Shown here: positions 40,769-45,356 of the stretch, piece by piece
Layout of the letters: every line of letters starts with the position of its first letter
Position numbering within the stretch: position 1 is the first letter of the stretch
Assembly (NCBI RefSeq): GCF_001677475.2
Contig: NZ_CP015229.1
From: Escherichia coli
GTDB taxonomy: Bacteria; Pseudomonadota; Gammaproteobacteria; Enterobacterales; Enterobacteriaceae
Length of the DNA: 64,000 nt
Direction: 5' to 3' (one strand)
The notes under the pieces: generated by a model
The model's database searches: none
Seen by the model: the letters and a program-made list of their open reading frames with translations, nothing else
What the model was told of the DNA's origin: nothing
Position numbers and translations under genes: made by a program

Positions 40769-43605
40769 GTGAGTTTGCATGGAGCTGGAATGAACCACGG
40801 CCAGCCATTGATCCGGCCAGATTTACGGAGCGCAGGCAGGAAACTGAAACCGACCTGCAACGCGCCATCCGTTACTACCTTGAGGCAGACAAAAGGGCAC
40901 AGGAAGAACAGGAAGCGAAGGAAGAAGCCTTTTTCGCACAATCCACCGTGGGTAAAAAACTCATGGCATCCCTTGAGGAAGCCGGACAGCGTGAAAAGCT
41001 GGCACAGAGCATCATCAGTAAGCGCCGGGCAACAGAACAAGACACGGTAGCCCGTGCCTTTGCCACACTAAAGGCACTACCTGTTTATCTGCGTGAACCA
41101 CTGAGCCGCCACCTCTCTTTCCTGCGCAAAAAACAGGAAGCCGATCGCCGGAAAGGCAAAAAGAGCTGGCAGGCGGAACGCTATGCACGCGGAACCCTGC
41201 GCAAAATATTCGAACGTCTGGACCGCACCGACAGCCGCTGGCTGACACCGGGTTATCGCGCCCTTGCCGGACGCGAACGCCTGGACGATTTGCTTTACCT
41301 GCCGCAGCTCAACAAACACCAGATACAGACGCTGGCCACCATGACAGCGGCGATGTTCAGCAGCACCTTCGAAAAACTCTGCGATGGCTTTGGCGCGACT
41401 GATGGCGAGCTGACCATGGATGTAACGCTGAAGGCGTATCAGATGCTGGCCCGCATGGCGTTACACCTGCACGCCATGCCTCCGCATTATGACGTACTGA
41501 CAACAGACAAAGACCGGAGGAACGAACCAGACACAGAACTGCTGCCGGGCGCAATCCTTCGCCTGACCTGTGCGGAATGGTGGAAACGCAAACTGTGGCT
41601 GTTACGTTGCGAGTGGCGGGAAGAACAACTCCGAGCCGCCTGTCTGGTTTCCAGAAAAACATCGCCCTATCTGAGCCAGGACGCGTTAAGCGAGTTTCGC
41701 GCACAGCGCGAGAAAACACGCGATTTCCTGAAAAGTTTCATGCTGGAAAATGAAGACGGGTTCACGATTGATCTCGAGACGGTGTATTACGCGGGAGTAA
41801 GTAACCCGGTTCACCGTAAGGCAGAAATGATGGCCACCATGAAGGGACTGGAACTTCTGGCCGAAGCCCGTGGCGACAGAGCGGTGTTTCTGACCGTCAC
41901 CTGCCCGTCAAAATACCACGCAACAACGGAGAACGGTCATCCGAACCCCAAATGGAACGGGGCCACCATGCGCGACTCCAGCGATTACCTGGTTAACACG
42001 TTTTTTGCGGCGGTCCGCAAAAAACTGAACCGCGACGGCCTGCGCTGGTATGGCATCCGCACGGTGGAGCCTCACCATGACGGCACTGTGCACTGGCATA
42101 TGATGGTCTTTGCACATCCGGACGAGATTGAAACCATCGTGTCCCACGTCTGCGATATTGCCATTCAGGAGGACCGCCACGAGCTGGGCGATGACATAAC
42201 TCCGCGTTTTAAGGCGGAGTATGTCGACGGCTCAAAAGGCACACCAACCAGCTACATCGCCACCTACATCGGAAAGAACTTGGACAGCCGCGCCGTGGAT
42301 GGCATCGACCCGAAAACGGGCAAGCCACGCGTTGACCACGAAACCGGAAAATCAATGGCCGAGAGCGTGGAGCGCGCCATCGGCTGGGCGCGCCTTCACC
42401 GGGTCCGTCAGTTCCAGTTCTTTGGCATCCCCTCCCGTCAGGTGTGGCGTGAACTGCGCCGCCTTGCCAGCCAGATGGCACGCAATCCGGAAGGCCCGCA
42501 ACGGCTGAAAGATGATGCAATGGATGCGGTACTCGCTGCCGCCGATGCCGGGTGTTTTGCCACCTACATTGAAAAACAGGGTGGCGTGCTTGTTCCACGC
42601 AAGGACTACCTGATTCGCACCGCCTACGACCTCGCAGATGAGCTGAACGATTACGGCGAACAGAGCGTACAGATTTACGGGATCTGGTCACCACTCATCG
42701 GGGAATCCTCCCGTGTGTGCACGCATCCGGATAACTGGAAGTTGGTAAGACGTAAACCAGAACCGGAAGACAACGCCCACGAAAATGGTTTTGACCTTCA
42801 GGGCGGCCCTGCCGCCCCTTGGACTCGTGGCAATAACTGTCCCCGTGTACAGGAAACGGACAATAACGGGACAGAACTGCCGGAAGAACGGCCAGCACCG
42901 TGGCCGCAGCTCCCTGACGGCGTTGAAGTGAACGAATGGATGCGCTCACTGAAACAGCACGAACGCCGGGCGCTGATGCGTTCGCTTCGTGACAAACAGG
43001 CAAAAAACAGCAGTGATGAAATGCAGAGCTGGACACAGAGCCGCAAACAGCAGCGGCCTTTGCCTGATAACCACGAATTACTCGCTAAAGAATGGCGGGA
43101 GTCTGCTGAATCTCTCGGCCTGCATATCGGTGAACAACAGATGCAGCACCTGTTACGGGGCGGCAGCCTGTACGTTGACGGCAGCATCATTGCACCGCAG
43201 GGATTTGAAATTGTACGCAAACCGGATACCCGCCCGGACAGCCGAATCACGCAGCTCTGGCAGCGCCTGAGCCGTAATCATGGCGTAAGCAGCACGGAGA
43301 TCCGCCATAACCCGGTCGCCAGCTATCTGGCACAGCTGGGGGCATCAGACCCTGAAGTCGCCGCACGCCTGGCATCCACACTTCAGCAGGACCAGAACAC
43401 CATGAAAACACCCGTTACCGTGCTTTCTGACATGCTGCGCGCCATCCGCGACGCAGAGCACGCACAGAGAATCAGTGAAACCACTGAACGCGCCCGCCGC
43501 AAAGCAGACCTGCTGCGGGGTGGCCTGACCAGTGGAAACAAAAAACAGACAGAAACGGGACTCATGAATCCCGTAAATGAGCAAAAAACGCGCAGCGATA
43601 TATGA
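40765..43605 (+). CDS. rolling-circle replication initiator, P2 gpA-like, with long C-terminal extension
   Basis: ORF 40738..43605; start set at ATG 40765 (MSEFAWSW); HWHMMVF and ATYIGKN motifs typical of gpA-family nicking proteins; 946 aa. Confidence 0.8.
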   Translation: MSEFAWSWNEPRPAIDPARFTERRQETETDLQRAIRYYLEADKRAQEEQEAKEEAFFAQSTVGKKLMASLEEAGQREKLAQSIISKRRATEQDTVARAFATLKALPVYLREPLSRHLSFLRKKQEADRRKGKKSWQAERYARGTLRKIFERLDRTDSRWLTPGYRALAGRERLDDLLYLPQLNKHQIQTLATMTAAMFSSTFEKLCDGFGATDGELTMDVTLKAYQMLARMALHLHAMPPHYDVLTTDKDRRNEPDTELLPGAILRLTCAEWWKRKLWLLRCEWREEQLRAACLVSRKTSPYLSQDALSEFRAQREKTRDFLKSFMLENEDGFTIDLETVYYAGVSNPVHRKAEMMATMKGLELLAEARGDRAVFLTVTCPSKYHATTENGHPNPKWNGATMRDSSDYLVNTFFAAVRKKLNRDGLRWYGIRTVEPHHDGTVHWHMMVFAHPDEIETIVSHVCDIAIQEDRHELGDDITPRFKAEYVDGSKGTPTSYIATYIGKNLDSRAVDGIDPKTGKPRVDHETGKSMAESVERAIGWARLHRVRQFQFFGIPSRQVWRELRRLASQMARNPEGPQRLKDDAMDAVLAAADAGCFATYIEKQGGVLVPRKDYLIRTAYDLADELNDYGEQSVQIYGIWSPLIGESSRVCTHPDNWKLVRRKPEPEDNAHENGFDLQGGPAAPWTRGNNCPRVQETDNNGTELPEERPAPWPQLPDGVEVNEWMRSLKQHERRALMRSLRDKQAKNSSDEMQSWTQSRKQQRPLPDNHELLAKEWRESAESLGLHIGEQQMQHLLRGGSLYVDGSIIAPQGFEIVRKPDTRPDSRITQLWQRLSRNHGVSSTEIRHNPVASYLAQLGASDPEVAARLASTLQQDQNTMKTPVTVLSDMLRAIRDAEHAQRISETTERARRKADLLRGGLTSGNKKQTETGLMNPVNEQKTRSDI

Positions 43606-43650
43606 AGCGCGCACAAAACAGGCAAAAACGGGATTTTAGAATCCCGTAAA
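43554..43650. promoter_or_regulatory. twin palindromic operator-like sites flanking the putative parM promoter
   Basis: AACGGGACTCATGAATCCCGTAAA at 43554..43577 and AACGGGATTTTAGAATCCCGTAAA at 43627..43650, each an inverted repeat ACGGGA-N8-TCCCGT; TATAT between them. Confidence 0.5.
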
Positions 43651-43681
43651 CGATTAATTAATCAACATAAGGAAAAGCGAC

Positions 43682-44641
43682 ATGAAAATTTGTATCGACG
43701 ACGGCTCCACCAACATCAAGCTGGCATGGACTGAGAACGGCGAACGCCGCAACGCCATCAGCCCGAACAGCTTCAAGTCGGAATGGTCTGCGCCGTTCGG
43801 TGGCACGCAGCCCGCGAACTACATGCTTGATGGCGTGCGCTATGGTTTTGATCCGGTCAGCGATCGCTTTGTCCAGACGACCGACACGCAATACCAGTAC
43901 AGCGATGTGAATGTCATTGCCATTCATCACGCGCTGGTCAAATCAGGCATCACGCCACAGGAGGTGGATGTGGTTGTCACCCTGCCACTGAGCGAGTATT
44001 TCGACACAAACGCACAGCCGGACATGGCCAACATCAACCGCAAAAAAGCGAACGTTATGCGCCCGGTGGAGTACCAGAACGGCGAAGCATTCACTATCCG
44101 TAACGTGCGGGTTATGCCTGAATCCATTCCGGCTGGCTTTAAGGCACTGGCTGACATGAGTCCGTTTGAATCCCTGCTGATTGTAGATTTGGGCGGAACC
44201 ACGCTGGATGTGGCAAAGGTTCAGGGGCAACTGGCAGGTATCAGCCAGGTGTTTTGCGATCCACACGTAGGCGTTTCTCTGATGGCCGATGCCGTACTGT
44301 CGGTGATGGCCACTAACGGTATGCGCACCAGTCACCACATCGCCAATACCATTATCGAACATCGCCATAATGAAGCCTGGCTGCGCCAGCACATCCACAA
44401 TGACGCGCATTACGCCAGCCTGATGGAGGTTATTCGTGAAAAGGAAGAAACACTGAAACAACGCGTGATCCGCGCGCTGGCGGGTTTTTCGGGTTACGGG
44501 CGGGTGATGGTTGTCGGTGGAGGGGCGGAGATTGTGGCACCCGCTATCCGCGAAGCCTGCGGAGTTCATGCGACTTTCATCGCGGACGGGGTGCCACAGT
44601 TTGCTCTGGTTAATGGGCTGTACGCAATGGACAAGGAGTAA
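43682..44641 (+). CDS. actin-like ATPase, ParM/StbA family
   Basis: 319-aa ORF; motifs DDGSTNIKL, SPNSFK, YSDVNVIAIHHAL, MPESIPAG, DLGGTTLD, VVGGGAEI align with plasmid R1 ParM as I recall it. Confidence 0.85.
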   Translation: MKICIDDGSTNIKLAWTENGERRNAISPNSFKSEWSAPFGGTQPANYMLDGVRYGFDPVSDRFVQTTDTQYQYSDVNVIAIHHALVKSGITPQEVDVVVTLPLSEYFDTNAQPDMANINRKKANVMRPVEYQNGEAFTIRNVRVMPESIPAGFKALADMSPFESLLIVDLGGTTLDVAKVQGQLAGISQVFCDPHVGVSLMADAVLSVMATNGMRTSHHIANTIIEHRHNEAWLRQHIHNDAHYASLMEVIREKEETLKQRVIRALAGFSGYGRVMVVGGGAEIVAPAIREACGVHATFIADGVPQFALVNGLYAMDKE

Positions 44642-44645
44642 ACCA

Positions 44646-44957
44646 ATGACGACACCAACCAGACGGATAAGTTTCTATCTGAAGCCTGCGGCCGTCAAGA
44701 ACGAAAGCGAAGCATGCGCCTGGCTGGACAGCCTTACACCAGAAGCCCGCAAAAGCGGCCAACGCGTGGCTTTTCTGGCCGGGCTGGCACTTCTGAAAAT
44801 GAATCCGGCAGAGGCTTACCGACTGGCTGCATGGGCTGACGATGAGGCGTTATCAGTGACACAAACCAGGACAGAATGCCCCGCGTCACAGCCAGTATCA
44901 ACCGCACAGATAACCAGTCAGATGGCCGGAAATATCCGGGCGTTATTTCCCGAATAA
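44646..44957 (+). CDS. ParR-like centromere-binding/repressor protein
   Basis: ATG 44646 with GGAG RBS, 103 aa; RRISFYLKP...AWLDSLTPEARKSGQRVAFLAGLAL resembles R1 ParR N-terminal RHH region; immediately downstream of parM-like gene. Confidence 0.7.
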   Translation: MTTPTRRISFYLKPAAVKNESEACAWLDSLTPEARKSGQRVAFLAGLALLKMNPAEAYRLAAWADDEALSVTQTRTECPASQPVSTAQITSQMAGNIRALFPE

Positions 44958-44962
44958 CACAA

Positions 44963-44990
44963 CATCAGGGCGCATCCGCCCTGATGACTT
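44963..44990 (+). terminator. putative terminator after parR-like gene
   Basis: 10-bp stem CATCAGGGCG/CGCCCTGATG with 4-nt loop, followed by short T-rich stretch. Confidence 0.4.
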
Positions 44991-45020
44991 TAATCCGGGA
45001 ACATAAACAAGGGGGACACA

Positions 45021-45356
45021 ATGCAACACATTGACAGAGAAAAAGCGCAGCGACTGATTGAGCGAATGGAAGCGCTGGCGAAAGAAGAAAATGTCAACAT
45101 CCAAAAAATAGCTGAATGTGGCCAGATAGTTCTTCGTCGTGAAAAAGACATCAAGCAACTGATGTCTGGCGAAATCAGCAAAACATGGACTTCAGGCAAG
45201 AAGACGATTTATTGCAGCTTCTGCAATAAATCCCAGCACGAAGTCATAAAGGTGATTGCCGGACCGTCTGTTTACATCTGCAATGAGTGCGTGGATTTGT
45301 GCAATGAAATTATCAGAAGAGAAGTGACAGACCATGAAGAAAAAACGCATGAATGA
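45021..45356 (+). CDS. ClpX-type C4 zinc-binding-domain protein (novel N-terminal helical region fused to ClpX-like ZBD)
   Basis: 111-aa ORF, GGGGGA RBS; residues [38 protein letters not shown] closely match E. coli ClpX N-domain (about 32 of 39 residues by my recollection); no AAA+ module. Confidence 0.8.

Follow-up and report, generated by a model that had tools for sequence, protein, structure and literature searches.

The ParMRC system is the textbook minimal machine for segregating DNA, and to our knowledge it has been studied almost only on plasmids. Here we describe a pair of near-identical DNA boxes that stand upstream of the parM and parR genes of a P2-like prophage in Escherichia coli, in a 64-kb stretch of contig NZ_CP015229.1 (assembly GCF_001677475.2; hereafter the window, to which all positions refer unless another locus is named). 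To judge from their sequence and its conservation, the twin boxes most probably serve a phage-borne ParMRC cassette as its ParR-binding centromere/operator.

In the characterised type II loci the centromere, parC, lies directly upstream of parM (PMC5016525, PMC9426499). The R1-type parC comprises 10 direct 11-bp A-rich/CCC iterons, with a block of five on each side of a recognisable promoter (L009 sequence; PMC5016525), and the plasmid relatives of the parM gene discussed here (L007-L010, L095-L100) have direct iterons of 10-11 bp that flank clear promoters upstream. The par1 locus of pB171 is more economical, its ParR binding just two 10-bp repeats upstream of parM (PMC9426499). Two further systems lie outside plasmids. 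The chromosomal cParCMR of Clostridium botulinum has a centromere of palindromic repeats to which ParR binding was shown by gel shift (PMC12270681), and the CGP3 prophage of Corynebacterium carries AlpAC, an actin-like filament protein with a DNA-binding adaptor whose sites, alpS, lie in the operon's upstream region; AlpAC expression begins soon after induction, and without it the phage DNA does not replicate efficiently (PMC4446434, PMC5539076).

The locus in the window resembles parMRC (parA/stb) of R1/IncFII in its order of cis site, parM and parR, and in having a cis site made of two blocks upstream of parM. It departs from R1 in that the boxes are not built from direct iterons of 10-11 bp arrayed on either side of a core promoter; there are instead two dyad-cored units at a fixed spacing of 73 bp, with no recognisable promoter and with one unit inside the upstream gene, and the replicon is an integrating phage where R1 is a low-copy plasmid. 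In economy the boxes come closer to the minimal centromere of pB171, although the pB171 repeats are direct and adjacent whereas the boxes are palindromic and 73 bp apart, and the ParR encoded here is seen to be similar to pB171 ParR by family profile only, not by single-sequence search. The cParCMR of C. botulinum shares with the present locus a palindromic site and a ParMR pair outside plasmids, but it has three palindromes, which a figure legend places after cParR, in a Firmicute host, and no phage context is reported for it. The best functional precedent for an actin-like module in an integrating phage is AlpAC/alpS, even though AlpC and AlpA are not R1-type ParM and ParR, alpS consists of about 24 short TTAAnnG repeats, and the adaptor gene comes first. 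Searches of the literature turned up no account of the P88 parMR or of its cis site. Among the systems compared, the ParMR proteins fall within the known R1/pB171 family, and it is the architecture of the cis site, with its two spaced dyads, that appears new.

Two dyad-cored boxes within a direct repeat

Read directly from the sequence, box 1 is AACGGGACTCATGAATCCCGTAAA (43554-43577) and box 2 is AACGGGATTTTAGAATCCCGTAAA (43627-43650), and their starts are 73 bp apart. The pattern ACGGGA-N8-TCCCGT, with at most one mismatch allowed, has just two matches in the window, one at 43555-43574 and one at 43628-43647; the chance expectation is 0.12 per window, and two or more matches arose in none of 100 shuffles. 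A search for further box or half-site copies across the same 64 kb, the immunity region included, yielded none beyond chance.

An earlier note on this DNA had reported two near-identical inverted-repeat elements 73 bp apart, and sequence reading, pattern search and shuffles all confirm them. That note had also called the elements 24-bp palindromes. The dyad symmetry is real, but the true dyad of each box is 20 bp long and is embedded in a 42-nt direct repeat, which a repeat finder places at 43539-43580 and 43612-43653 with 81% identity. In box 2 (ACGGGATTTTAGAATCCCGT, 43628-43647) the dyad has 8-bp arms, ACGGGATT and AATCCCGT, while in box 1 (ACGGGACTCATGAATCCCGT, 43555-43574) it has six perfect pairs and a C.A mismatch. 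Both 42-nt units carry an A-rich left flank, CAAAAAACAGrCAaAAACGGGA, and unit 1 has TAAATGA as its right flank.

Unit 1 lies inside the 3' end of gene A (40783-43605, + strand), which encodes a P2-type replication endonuclease of 940 aa by Pfam match (Phage_GPA, 1.5e-129) and by the annotation of phage P88. The same note had set box 1 over the last codons of this replication gene, and it is right that the box falls inside the 3' end; because the TGA stop is at 43603-43605, however, the box occupies codons 10-17 before the stop, and the stop itself falls in the spacer between the boxes. This spacer (43581-43611) keeps its length and not its sequence. A short GC-rich inverted repeat around an AT-rich centre, GCGC(A)GC-N10-GCGCGC at 43589-43613, is centred on the gene A stop midway between the boxes and is variable among relatives. 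Unit 2 is intergenic and 34 bp upstream of the parM start; the 42-nt repeats with their dyad cores precede the ATG of parM by 128 and 55 bp.

Conservation of core and spacing

We compared 74 distinct sequences of the P88 lineage, which came from phage records, genomes and IMG/VR. In these sequences GGGA and CCC show little or no change, and the eight central positions vary freely. Nucleotide diversity is 0.033 in the box core (GGGA/CCC), 0.04 in the flanks and 0.064 over the full arms, and it rises to 0.132 in the box centres (N8) and to a near-neutral 0.105 in mid-spacer; third codon positions give 0.115 in gene A and 0.065 in parM. Variation in the box core is about three times below that of neutral sites. 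Conserved arms around free centres are the usual pattern of sites bound by protein dimers.

The ParR proteins of this lineage fall into two main alleles that are 52% identical, and all 53 of 53 variants keep the TRRISFYLKP strand, the QRxAFLAGLAL helix and the NIxxLFPE tail, an invariance that is consistent with a constant DNA target. A comparison of ParR alleles with box variants for covariation was uninformative; the DNA-binding strand is common to the 53 variants, and the box variants are shuffled among alleles.

The strongest evidence for a parC-like site is conservation across diverged lineages. Intermediate relatives were found by ParR searches of representatives, and the contigs are all P2-like phages. 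Four diverged phage lineages, with ParR down to 40% identity, have two GGGA-N8-WCCC boxes 72-73 bp apart around a diverged spacer. In locus L131, whose ParM is 62%, ParR about 40% and gpA 61% identical to those of the window, the boxes are GGGACAACAAAAACCC at 1908 and GGGACAACACTAACCC at 1980, a distance of 72 bp; the distance is 73 bp in L132 (161 and 234), L137 (1414 and 1487) and L136 (1072 and 1145), as it is in the Hafnia member of the P88 lineage (L005). A six-way alignment (A6) is essentially gapless over the inter-box stretch, although the spacer sequence has diverged, and its invariant columns cluster on the GGGA...CCC of both boxes. By chance the relaxed motif GGGA-N8-WCCC would be expected about 0.3 times per locus. 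Scans of IMG/VR with the ParM proteins of L131 and L132 gave almost no further relatives.

These comparisons bear on the simplest alternative, namely that the boxes have no function, being either a neutral remnant of some local duplication or two palindromes paired by chance. In the P88 lineage the two 42-nt units, 81% identical, do look duplicated. But core and spacing are kept where spacer and flanks have diverged beyond recognition, diversity in the core is reduced, and the chance expectations just given, 0.12 per window and 0.3 per locus in relatives, are low; we regard a neutral origin as extremely unlikely.

In L136 an extra 93-aa gene (1200-1481) separates the twin boxes from parM, in the manner of a moron-style insertion. 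Since the insertion is downstream of the boxes, they stay at the 5' end of the operon. The leader element TATTAAYCA...GGA, found ahead of parM, recurs in other lineages, and in L136 it is duplicated, standing before both the inserted gene and parM.

Boxes that travel with parMR

The genes to the left of the boxes change from phage to phage. In L037 gene A ends earlier and is followed by a zinc-ribbon open reading frame (ORF), and homology to the window restarts exactly at the A-rich flank of box 1; this ORF acquires, at 2340-2440 of L037, the same C-terminal tail that gpA has in the window. In L132, L136 and L137 an unrelated, non-gpA ORF of 167 aa precedes the boxes. The TGA stop of gene A lies in the centre of box 1 in Hafnia, and in L131 box 1 codes for unrelated residues. 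What is conserved in box 1 is therefore the DNA and not the protein that it encodes. In the window the cassette supplies the final ~21 codons of gene A (43541-43605, …KKQTETGLMNPVNEQKTRSDI*), which are probably a dispensable extension.

P2-like phages that have related A genes but no parMR lack the boxes, and their DNA similarity to the window is confined to 42521-42870. This segment, the one part of the 3' half of gene A to be so conserved, is 66-72% identical in DNA to many such phages (Fels-2, RE2010, and Klebsiella and Yersinia phages) and is probably the P2-type ori/nick region. We considered the boxes as a P2-type ori or a site for the A protein and ruled this out: the conserved ori-like segment is ~700 bp upstream, and the boxes are absent from the phages that lack parMR. 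No genes other than parM and parR keep a constant link to the boxes.

This linkage also bears on the proposal that the boxes are operators for some other regulator, whether a host factor or phage C, Cox, Ogr or gpA, that would gate early transcription into parMR while the real centromere lies elsewhere. A 20-bp dyad whose half-site centres are 14 bp apart suits dimers of helix-turn-helix proteins no less well than those of ribbon-helix-helix proteins, and in C. botulinum cparC comes after cParR and not upstream (PMC12270681), a precedent for a centromere in another place. Against this stand the constant company of parM and parR alone and the lack of any related box elsewhere in the window, the immunity region included. 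The sole other non-coding DNA of the cassette is a terminator hairpin, which is not always retained. The boxes also lack the TGT-N12-ACA dyad, which is the dyad of the P2 late promoters. On balance we think control by another regulator unlikely.

The cassette genes

The product of 43682-44641 (+ strand, 319 aa) is by homology an R1-family ParM, an actin-like segregation ATPase. It matches Pfam StbA_N (1.8e-82) and the ParM C-terminal domain (1.2e-67), aligns over residues 2-316 with R1 ParM in the Protein Data Bank (PDB; entry 1mwk, E = 9.5e-93), and is 46-52% identical to the ParMs of IncF, IncL/M and IncK plasmids. Its leader, TTAATTAATCAACATAAGGAAAAGCGAC (43654-43681), contains the ribosome-binding site AAGGA and is nearly invariant in the 74 relatives.

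The parR-like gene (44646-44957, + strand) encodes a 103-aa protein, predicted to be a ribbon-helix-helix centromere-binding adaptor, that matches Pfam PF10784 (1.7e-24), the family to which the ParR of an IncFII R1-type plasmid also belongs (5.1e-30). It aligns with plasmid ParRs (alignment A1) over an N-terminal strand, RRISFYLKP, two helices and a C-terminal tail, NIRALFPE. A PDB search with the single ParR sequence gave no match, and the family profile was needed to reach pB171 ParR (2JD3, E = 5.6e-14). The AF2 model of the monomer has two helices with pLDDT >90 and an N-terminal strand that is not formed in the monomer; with this model Foldseek returned 2jd3_A at the top, with probability 0.93 but E 0.2. 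2JD3 is the only solved structure retrieved by the ParR profile or the model. Searching plasmids by tblastn with ParR returned P88-like prophage copies only, several of them in mislabelled chromosome fragments, and the plasmid ParRs were reached solely through ParM.

Across the lineage (L011-L090) parR is a recombination mosaic whose two allele classes diverge after about codon 18. It has a hypervariable linker at residues ~60-95, whereas no variation is seen in the N-terminal strand, in helix 2 or over the final 8 residues.

Directly after parR, a GC-rich hairpin with a 10-bp stem (44963-44986) is a likely terminator and the likely right end of the cassette, and homology with several phages stops right after parR, at 44957-44983. 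By these homology boundaries the cassette runs from about 43540 to about 44985, and most of the non-coding DNA in it belongs to the boxes. The locus has features of a type II system, with an actin-like ParM, a ParR directly downstream and a repeated cis site upstream of parM.

Possible folding of the boxes in RNA or single-stranded DNA

Inverted repeats can also be read as hairpins, and two explanations of this kind have to be weighed. According to the first, the boxes are tandem Rho-independent terminators for leftward transcription, shielding gene A and its internal ori from antisense transcription or ending a small antisense RNA. On the minus strand of the P88 lineage both boxes do score as 8-bp hairpins with T-rich tails, they fold at -10 to -11 kcal/mol (z roughly -2 to -3), and box 2 is overlapped by TTAATT-N17-TAAAAT, which weakly resembles a leftward promoter. 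The T-run, however, which is the A-rich left flank of the + strand, is absent along with the long stems from L131, L132 and L137, where the GGGA-N8-WCCC core and the spacing are kept. In a third of the P88-like sequences the changes in box 2 would amount to C.A mismatches on the minus strand, and compensatory changes are lacking. Leftward transcripts from the portal operon would already meet two better minus-strand terminators before the boxes, one behind the portal gene (47592-47572) and one behind parR (44986-44963), and a fixed spacing of 73 bp has no role in termination. Intrinsic termination is thus poorly matched on either strand, the + strand having no U-run and the minus-strand pattern being confined to the P88 lineage, and we hold it to be quite unlikely as the function of the boxes.

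The second explanation makes the boxes hairpins in + strand mRNA, or in the single-stranded DNA displaced during rolling-circle replication, where they would act in RNA processing or stability or as a signal for lagging-strand priming. Folded on the + strand, the boxes reach -9 and -11.4 kcal/mol, a transcript spanning both could form a long nested structure (z = -5.6), and two common variants of box 2 are G.U pairs on this strand. Variation in box 1 breaks + strand pairs, with a C.A mismatch in 18 sequences, so that box 1 variation favours the pairing of one strand and box 2 variation that of the other. In none of 59 distinct sequences, a set of low divergence, is a base pair changed on both sides. 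L131 keeps the sequence core even though its stems are reduced to 3-4 bp and its loops are 10 nt long, and an Rfam scan of 43000-45200 found nothing relevant, its two sub-threshold matches both lying outside the boxes. The boxes, moreover, follow parMR and not gene A or the ori. We judge a function as + strand or single-stranded hairpins to be very unlikely.

A candidate ParR centromere/operator

The boxes are real and non-random, they are under purifying selection in core and spacing, and they travel together with a genuine parM and parR. The earlier note had seen in them the arrangement expected of a parC-like centromere/operator, and this view gains support from the genuine ParM and ParR genes downstream, from the association of boxes with parMR, and from the retention of core and spacing across four lineages. 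Its companion claim, that the boxes bracket the parM promoter, is an interpretation that finds no support: even at relaxed consensus there is no conserved sigma-70-like promoter in the interval, and the spacer is not conserved between lineages. Sigma-70 scans of the box interval gave no match of at least 9/12 and none that was convincing or conserved. The best relaxed matches on the + strand reach 8/12; one is AAAACA-N16-TAGAAT, in which the -10 T is unique to this window, and the other is TCAACA-N16-GAAAAT, in which the -10 overlaps the parM start codon.

Because no + strand terminator was found between gene A and parM, read-through from gene A is possible, and so is an operator acting on it, which the note had offered as its alternative; we consider expression of parMR by early-operon read-through at least as likely as expression from a promoter of its own. 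Read-through expression would also fit the fact that the element is almost always chromosomal.

We infer ParR binding, cooperativity, capture of ParM, autoregulation and a biological role in a scheme that would run as follows. Ribbon-helix-helix dimers of ParR, encoded 1 kb downstream, would bind each GGGA-N8-WCCC box. Since 73 bp is about 7.0 helical turns, the boxes would lie on the same face of the DNA, and ParR bound to both could then cooperate, forming one small nucleoprotein complex with the spacer looped out. The conserved C-terminal tail of ParR (NIxxLFPE) would capture the ends of growing ParM filaments, and the filaments would move or separate circular phage genomes. The complex of ParR with the boxes would probably also throttle transcription into parM, whether this comes from a weak internal promoter or from gene A read-through.

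Several points weigh against this scheme. Most characterised ParRs bind arrays of direct iterons (PMC9426499), and here there are only two dyad-symmetric cores, in which the half-site centres are 14 bp apart, an unusual distance for adjacent ribbon-helix-helix dimers. Without a consensus promoter the operator half of the claim is weak. The ParR alleles offer no specificity switch by which covariation could be tested. Finally, the nearest sister lineage, of Serratia type (L094, L133, L134), has an almost identical ParR strand, RKISFYLKP, and yet a different cis architecture. Its upstream site consists of one long inverted repeat, GGGAACGAAATAGAAAAA and TTTTTCTATTTCGTTCCC separated by ~20-30 bp, together with a GCCGTTTAAACGGC palindrome, and is a candidate parC; aligned with the upstream region of the P88 type it is not convincingly homologous. 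Because this lineage differs in spite of its near-identical ParR strand, the binding register cannot be deduced and the rules of recognition are not simple. The Serratia-type loci, which belong to P2-like prophages of Serratia and others, lie at 2340-2500 in L094, 230-330 in L133 and 1375-1460 in L134, and their gene order is gene A, a dam methylase, parM and parR. With these points set against the conservation of core and spacing and the constant company of parMR, a ParR-binding centromere/operator is still the reading that we consider probable.

Prophage context

Over this region the DNA shares 95-99% identity with Escherichia phage P88 and with other Xuanwuvirus genomes (P2-like Peduoviridae). 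Of 5426 complete E. coli genomes, 1303 carry the prophage element, which matches at 1440 places on chromosomes and at 2 on plasmids. One complete P88-like phage genome (int, C, cox, A, parMR and structural genes), the 34,461-bp NZ_CP148288.1, has been deposited as a circular E. coli 'plasmid' (L130) and may be an episomal or excised form of the phage. In some complete E. coli genomes the box region is present as many as three times, implying poly-lysogeny of P88-like phages that share one candidate centromere.

Downstream of the cassette, at 45021-45356, is an ORF of 111 aa that is called 'carboxylate--amine ligase' in the P88 annotation. Its only domain is a C4 zinc finger of the ClpX type (Pfam zf-C4_ClpX, 1.4e-17), and its product might be a decoy or adaptor for host ClpX.

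Implications

There is a consequence for annotation, in that the last ~21 codons of gene A are derived from the cassette and are constrained as DNA and not as protein. If ParR does bind the boxes, they would constitute a compact and experimentally convenient parC, and the known range of ParR recognition would widen from direct iterons to spaced palindromes. The cassette also provides a handle on the question of why an integrating phage that replicates by rolling circle needs an actin-like segregation system.

A tentative answer, which we think rather less likely to be right than wrong, is that the cassette is not a plasmid-maintenance device but a machine for positioning DNA during the lytic or establishment phase of an integrating P2-like phage. 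Promoterless and silent in lysogens, it would be switched on only by early-operon read-through through gene A, and ParR on the boxes would both meter this read-through and tether monomeric phage circles to ParM filaments, much as AlpAC does in CGP3. Were such a positioning machine at work, about a quarter of E. coli chromosomes would hold one to three copies of its centromere, and partition-type interference would be possible between co-resident or superinfecting P88-like phages.

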